Assembly: GCA_049297675.1 (NCBI GenBank)
Contig: JBAQUS010000017.1
Span: 7,456 to 71,455 of the forward strand
DNA from: Minisyncoccia bacterium
GTDB taxonomy: Bacteria > Patescibacteriota > Minisyncoccia > Phycocordibacterales > DATDWN01
Length of the DNA stretch: 64,000 bases
Reading direction: 5' to 3'
Shown piece after piece: positions 7,454-63,795 of this stretch. Numbering within the stretch: position 1 is the stretch's first letter; every line of letters begins with the position of its first letter. The translations under genes were made by a program, and so were the position numbers. The notes beneath the pieces were generated by a model. That model saw nothing but the letters and a program-made list of their open reading frames with translations, had not been told where the DNA came from and searched no databases.

Positions 7454-7476
7454 TTGTGGAAGACGGTCTTCCACAA
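7454..7476. repeat. REP family 1 palindrome TTGTGGAAGAC-G-GTCTTCCACAA
   Basis: 11-bp perfect arms, in the same orientation as 6755-6775. Confidence 0.85.
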
Positions 7477-20966: not shown

Positions 20967-21020
20967 ATTTGAACTATACCAAAATCCTTCCCAAATTCCA
21001 ACATAATTATCTTTTTAATC

Positions 21021-21051
21021 TACTACCCCTACATCGGAAGTAGGAGTAGTA
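21021..21051. repeat. REP family 2 palindrome TACTACCCCTAC-ATCGGAA-GTAGGAGTAGTA
   Basis: Imperfect 12-bp arms, 7 nt upstream of the RAYT-2 start. Confidence 0.75.
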
Positions 21052-21058
21052 TCTTGGC

Positions 21059-21772
21059 ATGGCAAAAAGAAGGATAAATTTCTCATTAGATGAGTTCTAT
21101 CACTTGTATAATAGAGGAAACAGTAAGCAGAAAATATTTCTTGATGAACAGGATTATGATAGGTTTACCAAACTTCTTTTTCTCTGTAACACCATAAAAA
21201 GTATTAATTATAGGGATGATATCGTTGAAAAAGAAATTGATGCATGGGATTACGATAAAGGAGAAAGTATTGTTTCGATAGGAGCATGGGTTCTAATACC
21301 CAACCACTTTCATATACTTATAACAACACCCCCCACATCGGAAGTCGGGGAGGGGTCGATAAGTTTTTTTATGAAGAAGGTTTGTATTTCATACTCAAAG
21401 TACTTTAATAAAAAGTATGAAAGAGTAGGAGGTTTATTTGAGTCGAATTTTAAGTCTTCACACATAGATGATGATAATTATCTAAAATATATTTTTTCCT
21501 ACATTCACCTTAATCCAGTAAAAAAAGTTTTTCCCAACTGGAAAAATGATGGCATTTTGGATTATGAATTAACAAAAGAGTTTCTGAACAAATATGAGTA
21601 TAGTAGTTACACGGATTATATAAATATAAAAAGAAATCAAAGTAAAATTTTATCGATTGGAGAATTTCCAGACTACTTTTCTGATACTAAATTATTTAAG
21701 GATGAAATTTTTGATTGGCTATCATATACCCCTACTTCCGATGTAGGGGACAATGATGTAGGGGACAATTAG
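21059..21772 (+). CDS. REP-associated tyrosine transposase (RAYT), copy 2
   Basis: FYHLYNRG, AWVLIPNHFHIL and YIHLNPVK motifs. Divergent from copy 1. Confidence 0.8.
   Translation: MAKRRINFSLDEFYHLYNRGNSKQKIFLDEQDYDRFTKLLFLCNTIKSINYRDDIVEKEIDAWDYDKGESIVSIGAWVLIPNHFHILITTPPTSEVGEGSISFFMKKVCISYSKYFNKKYERVGGLFESNFKSSHIDDDNYLKYIFSYIHLNPVKKVFPNWKNDGILDYELTKEFLNKYEYSSYTDYINIKRNQSKILSIGEFPDYFSDTKLFKDEIFDWLSYTPTSDVGDNDVGDN
21329..21355. repeat. REP family 2-like sequence CCCCCCACATCGGAAGTCGGGGAGGGG, in frame inside RAYT-2 (encodes PPTSEVGEG)
   Basis: Shares the ACATCGGAAGT core with the flanking REPs. Confidence 0.6.
21729..21769. repeat. REP family 2 copy in inverse orientation (CCCCTACTTCCGATGTAGGGG) plus a 15-bp tandem duplication (GATGTAGGGGACAAT x2) forming the RAYT-2 C-terminus
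   Basis: Read directly. Encodes ...TPTSDVGDNDVGDN before the stop. Confidence 0.7.
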
Positions 21773-21858
21773 CTGATAATTCATGATGATTTAGGGGGCA
21801 TTTGGAAATATAAGGGAAATTGCTTAGCTGGGAAACAAGGAAAGGAGTGATATTCATT

Positions 21859-21880
21859 CCCCCATATCGGAAGTAGGGGG
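21859..21880. repeat. REP family 2 palindrome CCCCCATATCGGAAGTAGGGGG
   Basis: 5-bp C/G arms around the ATCGGAAGT core. Confidence 0.7.
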
Positions 21881-21907
21881 TGAAGGATTTTTGTGGTGAG
21901 CAATTTT

Positions 21908-21956
21908 AAATAAACAAAACCCCGCGCAACATCCGAGTGCGAAGCACGGGGTTTGT
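21908..21956 (-). terminator. intrinsic terminator on the minus strand (CCCCGTGC...GCGCGGGG then TTTTGTTTATTT)
   Basis: GC-rich hairpin plus a U-tract, immediately downstream of the minus-strand 79-aa gene pair. Confidence 0.55.
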
Positions 21957-21978
21957 TGGCGGGGTGGGGAGGAATGGA

Positions 21979-22218
21979 CTAATCCCTATACTGCTTCCTC
22001 CACTGGGTGAGCTCTTCTTCGGTGATGCCGAGTCTCGACATCCCGTTTTTGGGAAACTCACCGAGGTACTCATCGATGTCTTTGAGGGATGCGTACCCCA
22101 ATGACTGGTTGACTTCTCTCTCACGGAGTGTGTCGACCGCTCTTGGTCCAGTCACCATGACATCCGATGGCATTGGTCCGAACATCTGATTCGCCTTGCG
22201 TTGCCAGTAGTTCGACAT
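21979..22218 (-). CDS. hypothetical protein (79 aa), second gene of a GC-rich two-gene operon
   Basis: AAGGAGGAG RBS and ~50% GC, against a ~37% background. No recognisable domain. Confidence 0.5.
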   Translation of the reverse strand: MSNYWQRKANQMFGPMPSDVMVTGPRAVDTLREREVNQSLGYASLKDIDEYLGEFPKNGMSRLGITEEELTQWRKQYRD

Positions 22219-22251
22219 CTCTCCTCCTTTGGCTTTAGCCCTGTTATGTGG

Positions 22252-22491
22252 CTATAACTTGGCAATTCGATTGTAGCTTCGAACACAGCGACGGAGCGCG
22301 GATTCAGTGTACGCTTCATCTAAGCGATTGGGGAGACGAACAATGAACAGCTCTGCACCGTCCTTGTCATTAACCTTTGTTGCATCGAATTCCCGTGCCG
22401 TGTTGACTAGCCTGTCTTCTTCGAGAGGGAAGTCATTTTCTTCGATGATTACGAGGCCTGTTTCGAATTGTCCTGCATAACCTGGGCGCAT
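22252..22491 (-). CDS. hypothetical protein (79 aa), first gene of a GC-rich two-gene operon
   Basis: AAGGAGG RBS 4 nt from the ATG and a consensus promoter upstream. No recognisable domain. Confidence 0.5.
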   Translation of the reverse strand: MRPGYAGQFETGLVIIEENDFPLEEDRLVNTAREFDATKVNDKDGAELFIVRLPNRLDEAYTESALRRCVRSYNRIAKL

Positions 22492-22514
22492 GAAACCTCC
22501 TTTTTCTAACCGAC

Positions 22515-22543
22515 ATTCTATACTGTTTACATTAACTTGTCAA
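22515..22543 (-). promoter_or_regulatory. near-consensus sigma70 promoter TTGACA-N17-TAGAAT driving the 79-aa gene pair
   Basis: -35 at 22543..22538 and -10 at 22520..22515 on the minus strand. The same hexamers are used at 61781-61808. Confidence 0.55.
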
Positions 22544-22639
22544 GGGTAATTTTGTGGCTAGGAATATTGAATAAATGCTTGTTTGTGAGAGTAGAATTTG
22601 CTATAATTATCAGGTTAAAATGACAAAAAAATAATAAAA

Positions 22640-24727
22640 ATGGCGGAGAAAGATAAAAAAGGAAAAGATAATTACGGGGCGGATGCGATACAGATTCTAG
22701 AGGGTTTGGAGCCTGTTAGAAAGCGTCCTGGAATGTACATAGGTACAACAGGCACGGATGGACTCCACCACTTAATCACTGAGATTTTTGACAACTCTCG
22801 TGACGAAGCCATGGGAGGTTTTGCAAACGAGATTGAGGTTACGCTTCTTCCTGGAAATCGTGTGAGAGTTACTGACAATGGTCGAGGTATTCCTGTTGAT
22901 ATTCACAAGCAGACAAAAGTATCAGCACTAGAAACTATCATGACCACCTTGCACGCTGGAGGAAAATTTGGTGGTGAAGGAACTGGATACAAAGTCTCTG
23001 GTGGTCTTCATGGAGTAGGAGCATCAGTTGTAAACGCCCTTTCAATTTATTGTAAAGTTACCGTTCATAAAGATGGTGGTGAATATGTTCAAGAATACTC
23101 TCAGGGAAAGAAAAAAGCGTCAGTTAAAAAAGTTGGCTCAACAAAAAGAAACGGAACTATAGTGGTCTTTGAGCCAGATCCAGCAATATTTCCTGTAATT
23201 GATTTTTCATTTAAGAGAGTGGTTGATCATTTGAGGCAACAAGCATATTTAGTAAAAGGTCTTAGAATAATAGCCAATGATGCTTCGAAGTACGAGGGAA
23301 AAATTAAGGAGGACGAAGTCTTCAATATTTCTGAATTGGAGCTCGAGATTCCGTCCATGTCTTTTTACTTTGAGGGTGGACTTCTCTCTCTTGTGAAGTT
23401 TTATAACTCATCCTACAAGCCGATACACAAAAACGTTTTCTATGTTGAGAAGAAAACAAATGAATGGGAATCGGTGGAGATTTCGCTTCAGTACGTAGAT
23501 GACATTTCTTCACGCATGATTGGTTTTGCAAACAATATTCACACTCCAGAGGGCGGAACACATATTACTGGTTTTAAAACAGCACTGACGCGCTCACTGA
23601 ACGCTTATGGTAGAAAAAATAATTTAATAAAAGAATCAGAGGATAATTTTACAGGCGAGGATGTGCTTGAGGGAATAACAGCAGTTATTTCTATAAAACT
23701 TCGGGAGATACAGTTTGAGGGACAAACAAAAGCTAAGCTCGGAACTGTGGAGGCTCAAGCTAGTGTTTCAAATGTTTTCTCTGAAAGCTTCAACGCATTT
23801 TTAGAGGAAAATCCAGATGACGCTAAAGCTATAATAAACAAAGTAGTTTTGGCCCTCAAGGCCAGAAAGGCAGCCAAGGCGGCAAAAGATTCTGTTCTGC
23901 GAAAGGGAGCACTGGAGGGTATGACACTTCCAGGAAAGCTTGCGGACTGTCAGTCAAAGTTAGCAGAGGATTCGGAACTTTTCATTGTAGAGGGAGACTC
24001 TGCAGGAGGCACTGCAAAAACTGGTCGCGACAGACGAACGCAGGCAATACTTCCGCTTCGAGGAAAAATTCTAAATATTGAGCGTGCCAGACTCGACCGT
24101 ATGCTTGAATCCGAGCAGATTAAAAACCTAGTTATAGCTCTCGGTACTGCCATAGGGGATACATTTGATATTTCCAAACTTCGTTATCACAAAATAATCA
24201 TAGCCACAGATGCTGACGTTGACGGAGCGCACATCCGCACACTTATTTTAACCCTGCTTTACAGATTCTTCAGACCACTTATAGATGGTGGGTTTGTCTA
24301 CATTGCTCAACCACCGCTTTATAAAATAAAAAAAGGTAAGGAAATTTTTTACGCATATTCAGATGAGGAAAAAAATAAAGTTGTAGGTAAGGATGTTGTA
24401 GAAGAGATAGAAGAAGTGGAAAGTGTGAAAGATGAAAGTTTGAAAGTGGAAGGGTCAATTGAAGAGTCTGAGCAAGGGGAGTCCTTGCTCAAGGGCAAAA
24501 CGAAAGATAAGAAAGTTTCGATTCAGAGGTACAAAGGTTTGGGAGAAATGAATGCTGAAGAACTTTGGGAGACAACCATGGACCCTGTAAGGCGTGTTCT
24601 AAAGCAAGTGGCAGTTGAGGACACAGTATCAGCAGACAAAGTTTTCGATATTCTTATGGGTTCAGATGTTCCTGCAAGGAAGTCGTTTATTCAATCCAAT
24701 GCCACTAAGGCAAATTTAGATGTTTAG
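22640..24727 (+). CDS. gyrB: DNA gyrase subunit B
   Basis: GHKL ATPase motifs (GLHGVGASVVNALS), a TOPRIM domain, and a C-terminal RYKGLGEMN. Confidence 0.95.
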   Translation: MAEKDKKGKDNYGADAIQILEGLEPVRKRPGMYIGTTGTDGLHHLITEIFDNSRDEAMGGFANEIEVTLLPGNRVRVTDNGRGIPVDIHKQTKVSALETIMTTLHAGGKFGGEGTGYKVSGGLHGVGASVVNALSIYCKVTVHKDGGEYVQEYSQGKKKASVKKVGSTKRNGTIVVFEPDPAIFPVIDFSFKRVVDHLRQQAYLVKGLRIIANDASKYEGKIKEDEVFNISELELEIPSMSFYFEGGLLSLVKFYNSSYKPIHKNVFYVEKKTNEWESVEISLQYVDDISSRMIGFANNIHTPEGGTHITGFKTALTRSLNAYGRKNNLIKESEDNFTGEDVLEGITAVISIKLREIQFEGQTKAKLGTVEAQASVSNVFSESFNAFLEENPDDAKAIINKVVLALKARKAAKAAKDSVLRKGALEGMTLPGKLADCQSKLAEDSELFIVEGDSAGGTAKTGRDRRTQAILPLRGKILNIERARLDRMLESEQIKNLVIALGTAIGDTFDISKLRYHKIIIATDADVDGAHIRTLILTLLYRFFRPLIDGGFVYIAQPPLYKIKKGKEIFYAYSDEEKNKVVGKDVVEEIEEVESVKDESLKVEGSIEESEQGESLLKGKTKDKKVSIQRYKGLGEMNAEELWETTMDPVRRVLKQVAVEDTVSADKVFDILMGSDVPARKSFIQSNATKANLDV

Positions 24728-24963: not shown

Positions 24964-25182
24964 TTAAGCACTGACAGAAACTGGAATATTGTTTGCTGAC
25001 TTCATCTCATTTTTCTGTTTGTTGGTCTTTAGTGAAACTCCAAGTATCTCAACTCCAAGAACCTTACCATTTTTATCCAAATCTGCATTAACTAGACTCG
25101 AAAGATGAACAGTTTTTTTTACTGTTCCACTTTTTACTTTTATGTAAACAGCATCTGCTGTTTTGTCGTAATTAATTTTCAT
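24964..25182 (-). CDS. DUF2283-family protein (putative antitoxin-like partner)
   Basis: MKINYDKTADAVYIK N-terminus typical of DUF2283. Overlaps the upstream DUF4258 gene. Confidence 0.7.
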   Translation of the reverse strand: MKINYDKTADAVYIKVKSGTVKKTVHLSSLVNADLDKNGKVLGVEILGVSLKTNKQKNEMKSANNIPVSVSA

Positions 25183-25390
25183 AATATGCAGTTATTATTA
25201 TATAACTCGATCCCTGAATTTTGTATATCACATCCAGAACTTTGTTGCGTACAGCAATCTTTGCGGTAATCATACCATACCTGTCTACCTTATGCACTTG
25301 GGGTGATTTAATAGCTGTTTTCACATCACTTACAGAAACACCCCTTTCTAAAAAGCGATGTTTGGCATGATGAGTAAGAATGATCTTCAT
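25172..25390 (-). CDS. DUF4258-family protein (putative toxin-like partner)
   Basis: HAKHRFLERGVS motif typical of DUF4258. 72 aa. Confidence 0.7.
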   Translation of the reverse strand: MKIILTHHAKHRFLERGVSVSDVKTAIKSPQVHKVDRYGMITAKIAVRNKVLDVIYKIQGSSYIIITAYYEN

Positions 25391-30369: not shown

Positions 30370-30819
30370 ATGAGTTTACCGATGGTCGAAGGAAGAGAGC
30401 TTCAATGGTCGTCACTCACAGATTTTGAAAGGGCGTGTCTCGTCCAAATCGGTGAGGAGGTGGTGAGTCCGAATCCAAACACGCACCTCATCAAGATTCT
30501 CTGTGATGCGGTGCGTCTTGCGAGGCAGTGTGCGGACAATCCACCACTCATTTCCATCGAGGATGATCAAACGAGGCTCAGGAAAATCGCACTTAAGCAG
30601 ATAACCAGCGTAGTCAACAAATATCGACGGAAGGACGGATCTGGTCGTCTCCTTCCAGAGTATGATTGGGGAGGTCAGAGAAACTTCCTCATCCGTGACA
30701 TTTTAGAGACTGCTCTGAATGTTGCATTCTGCATTGAGGGTGCGTCAACCGGATTTCATTCCCGAGATTCCAATCGGGTTTATCATGACAGTCCAGTCAA
30801 CAACGCCCCTCGGGGCTAA
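30370..30819 (+). CDS. hypothetical protein (149 aa), GC-elevated cassette divergent from dnaE
   Basis: GGAGG RBS, a TTGACT-N17-TATTTT promoter, and a GGGGTCAC...GTGACCCC hairpin downstream. No recognised domain. Confidence 0.4.
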   Translation: MSLPMVEGRELQWSSLTDFERACLVQIGEEVVSPNPNTHLIKILCDAVRLARQCADNPPLISIEDDQTRLRKIALKQITSVVNKYRRKDGSGRLLPEYDWGGQRNFLIRDILETALNVAFCIEGASTGFHSRDSNRVYHDSPVNNAPRG

Positions 30820-41136: not shown

Positions 41137-41165
41137 TTGACAATGGATTTGTGTGGTGATACAAT
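41137..41165 (+). promoter_or_regulatory. sigma70-like promoter TTGACA-N17-TACAAT inside the rpsP-trmD insert
   Basis: Hexamers and spacing read directly. Confidence 0.4.
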
Positions 41166-41214
41166 GGATAGCGGAACAACCCAAGCTGGTGCTAAGTGCA
41201 CCGAGGAGGATGGA

Positions 41215-41400
41215 ATGAACTGCAAAGGTGAAATCATGACCGGCGGTGAAGTGGCCAGTGTGTTTGCATTCTCGTTTGCCTTGCTGGTGGTCGGAGTACT
41301 CGTCTTCGGGCAGGTGCCGATTGCCCAGGCAATCGAGACAGGCTGGGGCTTCAGTGCCGCCCAGCCCATTCTCAAACTCAAAATTGTGTGGGGAGGGTGA
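41215..41400 (+). CDS. hypothetical small membrane protein (61 aa), GC-rich
   Basis: GAGGAGG RBS and one TM helix. ORF-track frame 41101..41400 trimmed to this ATG. Confidence 0.35.
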   Translation: MNCKGEIMTGGEVASVFAFSFALLVVGVLVFGQVPIAQAIETGWGFSAAQPILKLKIVWGG

Positions 41401-41401
41401 G

Positions 41402-41542
41402 ATGCCAAAAACCTTCTGGCTTTGTCTCTCGTTCATTCTCGTCACGGTTGCTGCCGCAGTGGTCTTTATCTCTTACGAGGTGAAGTACGAGCACAACAAC
41501 CCCGATCGGCCAATCACTCCCATCGCCTTTCGAAGGGCGTGA
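41402..41542 (+). CDS. hypothetical small membrane protein (46 aa), GC-rich
   Basis: GGGGAGGG RBS overlapping the upstream stop, and one TM helix. Confidence 0.3.
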   Translation: MPKTFWLCLSFILVTVAAAVVFISYEVKYEHNNPDRPITPIAFRRA

Positions 41543-41639
41543 GAATTCATGAATGCCGGAGGTGAGGTCTTAGACCACGCCTCCGGTTCGTCGTATATAC
41601 AATTTCATGCATTTGTGATATAAATCAATAGGAGGTAAC

Positions 41640-61780: not shown

Positions 61781-61808
61781 TTGACAAAAAAAATAACAGT
61801 GCTAGAAT
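61781..61808 (+). promoter_or_regulatory. near-consensus sigma70 promoter TTGACA-N16-TAGAAT
   Basis: Hexamers read directly. AT-rich context just upstream of a GC-rich gene. Confidence 0.55.
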
Positions 61809-61822
61809 ACATATGGAACAGA

Positions 61823-61843
61823 TTGATCGCATTCCGCGATCAA
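61823..61843. promoter_or_regulatory. palindromic operator-like site TTGATCGC-ATTCC-GCGATCAA between the -10 element and the RBS
   Basis: 8-bp perfect arms, positioned at about +15 to +35 of the predicted transcript. Confidence 0.5.
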
Positions 61844-61855
61844 AGGAGGATTCGG

Positions 61856-62506
61856 ATGGCTACCAAAGCGACTGTCAACGAGACCACCGTGCGCCAGGCC
61901 TTTGTGGACTACGCACGTGAGGCGACCCTTGCCGTCGGCAAGGACGGAGTACACCCTCGGTTTGTCGGGTTTTACATCGTTCACGAGGTCACCGATCTCG
62001 TGAATGTAGCGAAGCTCTCATACAAGGAGGGGCGCTTCGATGAGGCATTCGAGAAGATCACCAGTGCGAGGAAGTGGCTTCTCGGTGGTCAGCGCAAGTA
62101 CGTGCTGAGTTCGGTCGAGAAGTACTTCGAGGCTCGTCTCGAGGATCTACGATACTCCGAGCTCGAGCAGGATATCCTCGACGGCGTCAACTCGAAGATG
62201 AGGGAATTCGAGTCAGCTCTCGTTGCCCTCAAGGGTGGCAATGCCAGCCTCGAAGAAGTGACCGTCATGTATTGGGTGCTCAACGATGCAATCGAGAATG
62301 CACCCAAGCTCCAGGCAGAGCGCGACGAGCATCGTCGCAAGCTCGCCGACGAGGATCGTTCCCGCAAGCAACGCGAGAAGATGCTCGCCAAGAAGGCACG
62401 CGAGGCCGAAGAGGCAGAGAAGAGCCGTCAGGCTCAGATCGAAGCCAACGCTCGCTGGCGACAGGAGCGTGAGAGCTTCGTCGACGAGCTCTTCGCGGGG
62501 CTCTAG
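61856..62506 (+). CDS. hypothetical protein (216 aa), strongly GC-rich (~58% by eye), with a charged coiled-coil-like C-terminus
   Basis: AAGGAGG RBS 6 nt before the ATG. Codon usage is dominated by GAG, CTC and CGC, unlike the backbone. No recognised domain. Confidence 0.55.
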   Translation: MATKATVNETTVRQAFVDYAREATLAVGKDGVHPRFVGFYIVHEVTDLVNVAKLSYKEGRFDEAFEKITSARKWLLGGQRKYVLSSVEKYFEARLEDLRYSELEQDILDGVNSKMREFESALVALKGGNASLEEVTVMYWVLNDAIENAPKLQAERDEHRRKLADEDRSRKQREKMLAKKAREAEEAEKSRQAQIEANARWRQERESFVDELFAGL

Positions 62507-62534
62507 TACACAAGGTCGGCAAGGCCGACGAAGT

Positions 62535-62567
62535 CCGGAGAGGACAGCAAACTCTCCGGGCTTTTTT
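62535..62567 (+). terminator. intrinsic terminator CCGGAGAG...CTCTCCGG followed by GCTTTTTT
   Basis: 8-bp stem plus a T6 run. A second hairpin, GTCGGC-AAG-GCCGAC, sits just upstream. Confidence 0.6.
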
Positions 62568-62624
62568 AGTACAAAAATTTTATTTGTGATATTATTACGT
62601 TAGAAATCTTAGAGAGGAGTAAGG

Positions 62625-63174: not shown

Positions 63175-63795
63175 TTACATTGGATCATTAGATAAGTTTA
63201 TTGTTTCGTCTAAGAAATCGTTACCGTCAAACAGTTCTTCAATAATTTGTCTATAAACAAGTATGAAATTCCTATCAGAAGTGTAGTCGATATAACTACT
63301 CCATTTATAATCATTAATATTACTTACAAGTCCATCTTTCAAGGGATTTGTGTGAATGTAGGCAGAAGTCCACATCAATTGTTCGTTTGAATTTATAACT
63401 TTAGACTTGAACTGATCTTGAAATAGATGACCAACTCTTTTATATTTTCTATTAATGTACATTGCATAACTTGTACAAAGTTTTAATATTAAATTTGAAA
63501 TGGGAATATTTTTCGATTGCTCGATCAATAAATGAAAATGATTTGGCATTAGACAAAAAGAGTGTAATTTAAATGCATTTTTTCCTAGCCCTTCTATCCT
63601 AATTCTGGAGTGAGGGAGATTGGTCAGTACATTTTTGTTTAATTCGGCTTCCTCAAACCCCAAAATTAGGCCTAGTCTAAATAAAAATGCCCTGTAATCC
63701 TGCTGGTCAAAGAATATTTTTTCTTTATTGTTACCCCTATTGTAGGCATGGAAGATTGAACCATCACCAACATCTTTGTAATCTCTTAGTTTCAT
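63175..63795 (-). CDS. REP-associated tyrosine transposase (RAYT), copy 3
   Basis: FHAYNRG, FCLMPNHFHLL and YIHTNPLK motifs. Confidence 0.8.
   Translation of the reverse strand: MKLRDYKDVGDGSIFHAYNRGNNKEKIFFDQQDYRAFLFRLGLILGFEEAELNKNVLTNLPHSRIRIEGLGKNAFKLHSFCLMPNHFHLLIEQSKNIPISNLILKLCTSYAMYINRKYKRVGHLFQDQFKSKVINSNEQLMWTSAYIHTNPLKDGLVSNINDYKWSSYIDYTSDRNFILVYRQIIEELFDGNDFLDETINLSNDPM

Follow-up and report, generated by a model that had tools for sequence, protein, structure and literature searches.

The question raised by this locus is what kind of genetic unit is formed by two small, GC-rich genes lying between AT-rich neighbours. The genes are found upstream of gyrB in a 64,000-nt stretch (positions 7,456 to 71,455, hereafter the window, in which all positions are numbered) of contig JBAQUS010000017.1, from the Minisyncoccia bacterium assembly GCA_049297675.1, and each is an open reading frame (ORF) of 79 aa, named gene 1 and gene 2 in the order of transcription. 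We favor, with a probability of roughly 0.55, the reading that the pair is a chromosomal, moron-like accessory expression cassette. Comparison of related contigs further places it, on sequence grounds, as one member of a recurring pool of GC-rich orphan cassettes bounded by predicted promoters and terminators. This cassette class, together with the persistence of its composition, is a more interesting finding than the pair itself.

Organization and base composition of the pair

The elements of the predicted transcription unit are as follows.

22515-22543, minus strand: sigma-70-type promoter TTGACA-N17-TAGAAT (11/12 consensus matches in a promoter scan)
22496-22502, minus strand: Shine-Dalgarno (SD) site AAGGAGG, 4 nt 5' of the gene 1 ATG (read directly from the sequence)
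22252-22491, minus strand: gene 1, 79 aa (ORF list)
22219-22251, minus strand: intercistronic spacer of 33 nt, with AAAGGAGGAG at 22221-22230
21979-22218, minus strand: gene 2, 79 aa (ORF list)
21908-21965, minus strand: putative intrinsic terminator, a long GC-rich hairpin with a U-tract (folding of the 3' region)

Seventeen nucleotides separate the -35 hexamer (TTGACA, 22543-22538) from the -10 hexamer (TAGAAT, 22520-22515), and this promoter is among only six sites scoring at least 11/12 on both strands of the 64-kb window. The spacer at 22219-22251 holds no terminator-like hairpin with a T-run, so the two genes are probably co-transcribed. Downstream of gene 2 a hairpin at approximately 21965-21919 is followed by UUUUGUUUAUUU, and the 101-nt 3' region has a folding energy of -32.1 kcal/mol (z = -2.35). 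This hairpin is long and branched, and for that reason escaped a simple terminator scan, whose target is a short stem closed by a 3-8 nt loop. The same arrangement was observed in L001 (ENA ERZ1758444), a syntenic relative used as the reference for substitution counts: its promoter has identical hexamers and spacing (L001:7668-7696), both SD sites are conserved, the intercistronic spacer is 27 nt, and an equivalent hairpin and T-run lie downstream. One bicistronic mRNA would be expected from the near-consensus sigma-70 promoter, with strong and constitutive co-transcription of two small, acidic, soluble proteins.

Across the pair (21979-22491) the GC content was 0.507, whereas the window averaged 0.379 (sd 0.041, z = 3.1), and approximately 2.5% of same-size windows came within 0.02 of this value. 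GC at third codon positions (GC3) was 0.475 in gene 1 and 0.675 in gene 2, compared to 0.34 +/- 0.08 for the 52 window ORFs of at least 100 aa; the flanking genes had GC3 values of 0.29-0.43 against 0.47-0.68 in the pair. The lysine share of the basic residues, K/(K+R), was likewise shifted, at 0.30 versus 0.64. The GC excess is beyond normal gene-to-gene variance, yet it is not unique in the window.

An original prediction, made from the letters of the window alone, had described this unit as a consensus promoter, AAGGAGG-N4-ATG before a first 79-aa ORF, a 33-nt spacer, a second 79-aa ORF and a hairpin with a U-tract. All of these elements were recovered (promoter at 22543-22515, SD site and first ORF at 22502-22252, spacer at 22251-22219, second ORF at 22218-21979). 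Its estimate of about 50% GC against a backbone of about 37% agrees with our measurements, and the excess is larger than the gene-to-gene variance within which the prediction had allowed it might fall. The view of the unit as a compact accessory operon of foreign-looking composition, complete with promoter, ribosome-binding sites and terminator, is thus supported.

Coding status of the two ORFs

The order gyrB, gene 1, gene 2, a transposase-like gene described below, pheS, glycosyltransferase is common to the window and L001. The L001 proteins are 74% (gene 1) and 75% (gene 2) identical to those of the window, with zero indels in the 79 codons of either. Substitutions at codon positions 1/2/3 numbered 16/13/42 in gene 1 and 13/9/33 in gene 2, and synonymous differing codons numbered 32 and 24 in the proposed frames compared to 3-7 in shifted frames. 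Nei-Gojobori dN/dS values against L001 were 0.12 for gene 1 and 0.10 for gene 2. Judged from these substitution patterns, both ORFs are real genes under purifying selection.

Two orphan protein families

The public collection searched holds approximately 15 billion proteins, covered as 5.8 billion cluster representatives in a word-indexed search and as 1.84 billion representatives in an exhaustive HMMER search. Within it the gene 1 family has about 7 members and the gene 2 family about 12.

The gene 1 product is a 79-aa acidic and hydrophilic protein (pI 4.9). Its family shares the motifs MRPGYA.QF.TGVVIIE and DEVYTE.ALRRS, with invariant N-terminal positions comprising MRPG, G12, V14, I15 and E17. 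The word-indexed search found five other relatives at 50-74% identity, and a metagenome scan added a further locus (L009). An AlphaFold model (pLDDT 82, pTM 0.68) has a small alpha/beta fold, for which no structural match was found in PDB or BFVD; it resembles none of the ribbon-helix-helix (RHH), AbrB, Phd or helix-turn-helix (HTH) folds and has no likeness to antitoxins or toxins. An exact-sequence look-up gave Logan as the only source and no NCBI entry, so gene 1 is apparently uncalled in the NCBI records of metagenome-assembled genomes (MAGs).

The gene 2 product is also acidic and hydrophilic (79 aa, pI 5.4), is predicted to be all-helical, and belongs to a family with the conserved C-terminal motif P..GM..LGITEEEL.QW+..Y. 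Three proteins were found for it in the word-indexed search, one being the window's own gene called short, and eight further, more distant relatives in the exhaustive search (relatives P0003, P0004, P0010-P0017). In NCBI MAGs gene 2 is annotated as a hypothetical protein, and one record starts at Met12 (68 aa, 11 codons short); conservation of the N-terminus MSNYWQRKAN and the presence of an SD site support the 79-aa start. A weak Pfam match of gene 2 to HTH_Tnp_1 covered 18 residues, and its score of 13.6 bits fell below the cut-off of 24.1 (E = 0.08). The signal was absent in all 10 relatives (1/11 family members matches), and an HTH_Tnp_1-type assignment was rejected as below the gathering threshold and not recurring.

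Neither protein matched a family in Pfam, NCBIfam, PADLOC or PHROGs, no recurrent Pfam family emerged when all members of both families were searched, and the family profiles matched nothing among PDB sequences. Viral contigs and GTDB genome representatives contained no relatives of either gene, and tblastn against phage and plasmid records returned nothing except a chance-level match (E = 0.1). There are no paralogs of either gene in the window, and the two are mutually unrelated. Gene 1 and gene 2 therefore define two new, unrelated orphan families, which appear confined to AT-rich genomes of the Minisyncoccia or Candidate Phyla Radiation (CPR) type. This bears out the suggestion that neither protein belongs to a recognized family and that the pair might be new; the housekeeping matches that had been named as a contrary outcome did not appear, as no family matched at all.

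A recurring pool of GC-rich cassettes

Of the six window promoters that score best (at least 11/12), three lie directly upstream of the three GC-richest islands (binomial P = 1.6e-4), while only 2% of 400-nt windows reach a GC of 0.50. The two islands other than the pair are organized as follows.

41137-41590, plus strand: second candidate cassette, with promoter TTGACA-17-TACAAT, two small membrane ORFs and a hairpin terminator
61781-62570, plus strand: third candidate cassette, with promoter TTGACA-16-TAGAAT, AAAGGAGG, a 216-aa orphan ORF and a hairpin with a T-tract

The ORFs of the second cassette lie back to back (41215-41400, 61 aa; 41402-41542, 46 aa), and GC is 0.545 in the 400 nt downstream of its promoter. 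A look-up of the exact sequences found neither one among the public proteins, and the two ORFs are for that reason probably unannotated. The ORF of the third cassette (61856-62506, within a listed ORF at 61781-62506 with GC 0.565 and GC3 0.71) has a charged, coiled-coil-like C-terminus. At least four GC-rich orphan ORFs or islands occur in the window besides the pair. Two further ORFs have an SD site, a downstream hairpin and a weaker promoter match, one of 170 aa at 47439-47951 (plus strand, GC 0.48) and one of approximately 149 aa at approximately 30370-30819 (plus strand, peak local GC about 0.50). The GC-rich window ORFs that were scanned, among them 47439-47951 but not those at approximately 30370-30819 and 41215-41542, had no Pfam match above threshold.

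The association extends to the related contigs, where at least 8 of 10 promoters of such quality precede GC-rich cassettes. All examined members of either family have a GC of 0.47-0.56 in contexts of 0.34-0.41 (L012 being too short for a context), and similar cassettes in related contigs, sometimes arrayed, adjoin gyrB, dnaJ or groEL. In L011 the gap upstream of gyrB holds a tandem array of separate promoter-ORF-terminator units, one with a gene 2 relative; the cassettes occupying this gap thus differ between lineages. A conserved multi-hairpin element was also observed between cassette genes at L006:612-700, L009:535-600, L011:2275-2355 and L012:914-930, with a degenerate copy in L009 at approximately 195-262. 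Its form is CCGGCYGAG..CTCRGCCGG, GTCCCAYCAAAGTTTT, a 13-20 nt loop, AAAATTYYGRTGGGAC, then GAATAG-TCGTTCC. Possible roles for this element, which is absent from the window, are a site of RNA processing or regulation and a junction for recombination.

Our literature searches turned up no earlier account of GC-rich cassettes from CPR genomes. A broader proposal, which we put forward tentatively and at somewhat less than even odds, is that these loci represent a previously undescribed class of chromosomal cassettes in Minisyncoccia (CPR) genomes: short orphan genes with a near-consensus promoter and a terminator, kept at approximately 50-55% GC in genomes of 35-40% even where synonymous divergence has reached saturation, placed beside core genes such as gyrB and dnaJ and exchanged or replaced as alleles through recombination. 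The GC content would be a signature of that process, arising by GC-biased gene conversion or by selection on the transcript. If so, gene 1 and gene 2 would each represent a founding family of the pool. CPR (Patescibacteria) genomes are small and largely made up of genes without a known function. An architectural class recognizable from three features (consensus promoter, GC-rich orphan ORF, terminator) would open a way into their pool of accessory genes, which probably serve interactions. Automatic mining for such units would be feasible if GC islands were intersected with the output of promoter and terminator scans.

Persistence of composition and apparent turnover of alleles

Because synteny is shared and similarity runs through the promoter-side border (our own reading of both sequences), the cassette predates the split of the window and L001 lineages, and the pair is as old as its flanks. 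This split is deep: synonymous sites of the flanking genes are saturated, with a proportion of synonymous differences (pS) of 0.73-0.81 and a dS of at least 2.8 or undefined, and pS in the pair is 0.62-0.68. Gene 2 nevertheless has a GC3 of 0.64-0.68 in both genomes despite the saturated flanks, from which the GC-richness of the pair seems to be maintained or renewed and not to be the fading trace of a transfer. In a rough two-state decay calculation of our own, with a host equilibrium GC3 of approximately 0.34, an unconstrained GC3 excess is expected to shrink to at most one quarter over the window-L001 distance, and the ancestral gene 2 would have needed a GC3 above 1, which is impossible. 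Prokaryotic orphan genes have mean GC and GC3 values below the rest of the genome (PMC4706650), and the orphans of the cassettes run against that trend.

A second pair of loci bears on the turnover of gene 2. L010 and L013 have DnaJ proteins that are 97% identical (dS 0.38), while their gene 2 relatives (L010:1380-1760 and L013:1700-2070) are 43% identical with saturated dS. At the same two loci the promoter, the last 20 or so codons and the terminator are nearly identical. The contrast points to one of two processes, replacement of alleles or strong diversification across the N-terminal two-thirds; the locus is fixed, and the gene 2 relative occupying it is hypervariable. Bacteria have been proposed to undergo GC-biased gene conversion (PMC4450053). 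Combined with frequent recombination it would explain both the persistence of GC and the L010/L013 contrast, and we offer it as a hypothesis for the composition and turnover of the cassettes. It is unusual for coding sequence to stay GC-rich under a strong AT bias, and the cassettes may thus offer a natural case in which GC-biased gene conversion can be weighed against compositional selection in bacteria.

Independent distribution of the two families

Gene 1 and gene 2 were observed together only in the window lineage and L001. Elsewhere, a gene 1 relative either stands alone, flanked by host genes and equipped with a TTGACT-type promoter and a terminator (L008), or follows another ORF, which is a 139-aa Cys-rich orphan in L006, a membrane ORF of about 71 aa downstream of groES/groEL in L007, and a further GC-rich ORF in L009; one relative adjoins relA/spoT. 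Among gene 2 relatives, those in L003, L010 and L013 stand alone and are oriented divergently from dnaJ, the one in L011 follows a 141-aa orphan ORF adjoining gyrB, and another lies within a run of orphan ORFs. Both cassette borders are visible in L003, L008, L010 and L013.

Weighing of alternative explanations

The pair had originally been likened to a toxin-antitoxin (TA) module, and two equal-sized small genes, closely spaced behind one promoter and beside a transposase-like gene, would suit a new type II TA pair, autoregulated and addictive, with gene 1 as the antitoxin and gene 2 as the toxin or the reverse. Since partner exchange is known among TA families, the variable partners of gene 1 do not alone exclude such a module. 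The solitary copies speak more directly against it, as gene 1 stands alone in L008 and gene 2 in L003, L010 and L013, each with a strong promoter and a terminator, so that neither can be a toxin needing the other, as a toxin left unneutralized could not have been retained in such a setting; the conserved co-occurrence expected of a toxin never lacking its antitoxin was not observed. Membership of a known toxin or antitoxin family was not found in sequence or fold: no TA or defense model matched in PADLOC, Pfam or NCBIfam, the gene 1 model has none of the RHH, AbrB, Phd or HTH folds, and the HTH_Tnp_1 match of gene 2 (E = 0.08) recurs in 0/10 relatives. The genes are also 33 nt apart with separate SD sites and no overlap or coupling, and their inheritance has been stable, with a dN/dS near 0.1 in each case, as in ordinary genes. 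Gene 1 and gene 2 are thus probably not a TA pair, and we hold a new type II system to be very unlikely; the resemblance originally suggested was not supported by the comparison. The idea that the region is non-coding, being either a GC-rich structured RNA or a set of chance ORFs of the kind that readily arise in GC-rich DNA, receives almost no credence from us. GC-rich islands within AT-rich genomes are often RNA genes, and several overlapping ORFs do occur in other frames. Set against this, the excess of position-3 substitutions is confined to the proposed frames, dN/dS is about 0.1 for both genes, no indels separate them from L001 across the 79 codons of each, and Rfam gave nothing relevant in an E-value scan of 21000-23000 or a gathering-threshold scan of the whole window. 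The frame-specific synonymous counts and dN/dS refute a non-coding region as far as sequence data allow.

Plain horizontal transfer from a GC-rich donor (host, plasmid or phage), with slow decay toward AT and no cassette class, would account for the GC, the GC at codon positions 1 and 2 and the preference for arginine over lysine (K/(K+R) 0.30 versus 0.64), all of which resemble a GC-richer genome. Two other observations favor it: a 26-nt direct repeat brackets the insert, and outgroup-polarized synonymous changes numbered 22 from GC to AT compared to 11 from AT to GC (33 sites, too few to separate decay from equilibrium). No relative in a GC-rich context was found in the collection of approximately 15 billion proteins, however, where the contexts that could be judged were AT-rich CPR-like contigs, and the phage, plasmid, viral and GTDB representative collections yielded no relative. 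The cassette also predates a split over which its flanks have saturated, our rough decay model needs an ancestral gene 2 GC3 above 1, members at 40-75% identity all have a GC of 0.47-0.56 as if near equilibrium, and the near-consensus promoters lie within AT-rich, host-like sequence. We consider such a transfer unlikely. A regulator and effector operon of the anti-CRISPR/Aca or anti-defense style, in which gene 2 would be an HTH repressor of the promoter and gene 1 an inhibitor of a host or rival system, appears improbable to us. It would fit the strong promoter with a small acidic orphan first, the likeness of the gene 2 C-terminus to helix 2-helix 3 of HTH_Tnp_1 (E = 0.08), the different partners of gene 1 elsewhere and the fast turnover of the N-terminal part of gene 2 relatives. 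The HTH signal is sub-threshold and not reproduced among relatives, though, and the supposed recognition helix opens with an acidic TEEEL, which we judge unfavorable for DNA contact. Gene 2 relatives lack an upstream effector at three loci, there is no mobile-element context, and the repeat search reported no inverted-repeat operator at the promoter.

Several points weigh against the accessory cassette that we favor. The promoter and terminator are consensus matches only, and the gene 2 model (four helices, pLDDT 57) is of low confidence and too poor for a structure search. The families are tiny and their contigs mostly short, and in some cases the absence of a partner could be a contig-end effect. 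The 22 versus 11 polarized changes are statistically compatible with ongoing neutral decay, which leaves the claim of maintained composition to a rough saturation argument. The comparison with morons is architectural only, since no phage context or homolog was found.

Under the reading of the pair as an accessory expression cassette, the unit was present in the common ancestor of the window and L001 genomes and has been kept by purifying selection. Cassettes of this kind would occupy intergenic gaps beside conserved housekeeping genes (gyrB here, dnaJ or groEL elsewhere), and exchange may proceed by homologous recombination anchored on these conserved core neighbors. Their GC-richness could result from selection on the sequence or mRNA, or from GC-biased gene conversion accompanying frequent exchange of cassette alleles. 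As the families are not interdependent, the two soluble proteins would act independently. They may bind other macromolecules in an accessory role such as conflict or partner interaction, with gene 2 possibly combining a conserved C-terminal docking module and a fast-changing N-terminal part.

Genomic neighborhood

The flanking genes are gyrB (upstream and divergent), a REP-associated tyrosine transposase (RAYT; REP, repetitive extragenic palindrome), pheS, a glycosyltransferase and thrS. Three further features lie next to the cassette.

21059-21772, plus strand: RAYT, a Y1/IS200-like transposase of 237 aa (Pfam Y1_Tnp, E = 2e-5)
21889-21914, no strand assigned: right copy of a 26-nt imperfect direct repeat (repeat search, 21/26 match)
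22550-22575, no strand assigned: left copy of the same repeat, just upstream of the promoter (repeat search)

The RAYT is convergent with the cassette, is conserved as its neighbor in L001, and has a GC of 0.31, AT-rich like the host. Four copies of a 21-nt palindromic REP (CCCCTACATCGGAAGTAGGGG-like) start at 21026, 21330, 21729 and 21859. Inverted 23-nt REP arms lie on either side of the RAYT (21026-21048 and 21727-21749), with a further REP at 21859-21879, and the repeat search found no REP beyond the cassette on the gyrB side. REP elements were accordingly rejected as cassette borders, as the REP hairpins enclose the RAYT alone, and the locus does not have the form of an IS200/IS605-type element with passenger genes, its hairpin ends enclosing the RAYT and not the cassette. 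One REP copy (21330-21350) is inside the RAYT coding sequence, another (21729-21749) overlaps its 3' end and encodes a repeated ...TSDVG... peptide, and two tandem 15-nt repeats are found at 21740-21769. A second RAYT (63175-63795, minus strand; Pfam Y1_Tnp, E = 2e-11) lies approximately 600 nt from the third cassette, so that both RAYTs of the window are near a GC-rich cassette. The original prediction had placed the pair beside mobile DNA. A RAYT/REP neighbor is indeed present, but the link of the cassette to mobile DNA is weak: a conserved RAYT neighbor is limited to the lineage of the window and L001, no RAYT lies near the cassettes of either family at other loci, and no phage, plasmid or viral relatives were found.

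The direct-repeat score of 21/26 was reached in 0/60 shuffles of the border regions (null maximum 17). A search of the L001 ortholog and of eight other cassettes gave no bracketing 26-nt repeat of this kind, and because it is confined to the window's cassette we have not used it as evidence of an insertion scar. On the other side, the interval between the cassette promoter and the gyrB start codon (ATG, 22640) is only 96 nt long (22544-22639). TTATCA-17-AATAAT (22607-22635), the best match to a promoter on the gyrB side, leaves just 4 nt before this ATG, and the gyrB mRNA could for that reason be leaderless or use another promoter. Further away, between thrS and pspC, two overlapping 72-aa ORFs of normal AT-rich composition (25172-25390 and 24964-25182, minus strand) look, in overlap and size, more like a classical small TA-type pair than gene 1 and gene 2 do.

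Comparison with known systems

Type II TA operons share with the pair the two small, adjacent and co-oriented genes behind one promoter and the accessory site near a transposase-like gene. They differ from it in that gene 1 and gene 2 show no co-distribution, occur as solitary copies with strong promoters, have no family or fold match and are neither overlapping nor coupled. The likeness to REP/RAYT neighborhoods lies in the RAYT with inverted REP hairpins directly downstream of the cassette and in the second RAYT near the third GC-rich cassette; unlike in such neighborhoods, the REPs do not bracket the cassette, other loci are without a RAYT, and the RAYT itself is AT-rich.

Integron arrays are closer in that small, mostly orphan genes occur as exchangeable units, sometimes in tandem (L011), and in that a recurring hairpin element lies between some of the units (L006, L009, L011, L012). 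Integron cassettes are usually promoterless, whereas each cassette here would have its own promoter and terminator, and the window pair is without the hairpin element. Nor did the inspected ORFs and gene calls surrounding the cassettes include an integrase, although no search for attC sites was made; an assignment as an integron gene cassette was accordingly rejected.

Phage morons, which are defined by their own promoter and terminator and a deviant GC (PMC3594210), offer the nearest architectural likeness. The pair has a predicted promoter and terminator around few genes, an arrangement kept in L001, and a composition unlike the surrounding genes (GC 0.51 versus 0.38, z = 3.1); a phage or prophage location was not found, its neighbors being housekeeping genes and phage or viral relatives being absent. 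As in morons such as HK97 gene 15, one or two small accessory genes with deviant GC form an independent unit between unrelated genes. Unlike morons, the cassette has no phage relative and lies among the chromosomal genes gyrB, RAYT and pheS, where it is GC-richer than its host, appears to stay so, and has been inherited vertically over a saturating synonymous distance.

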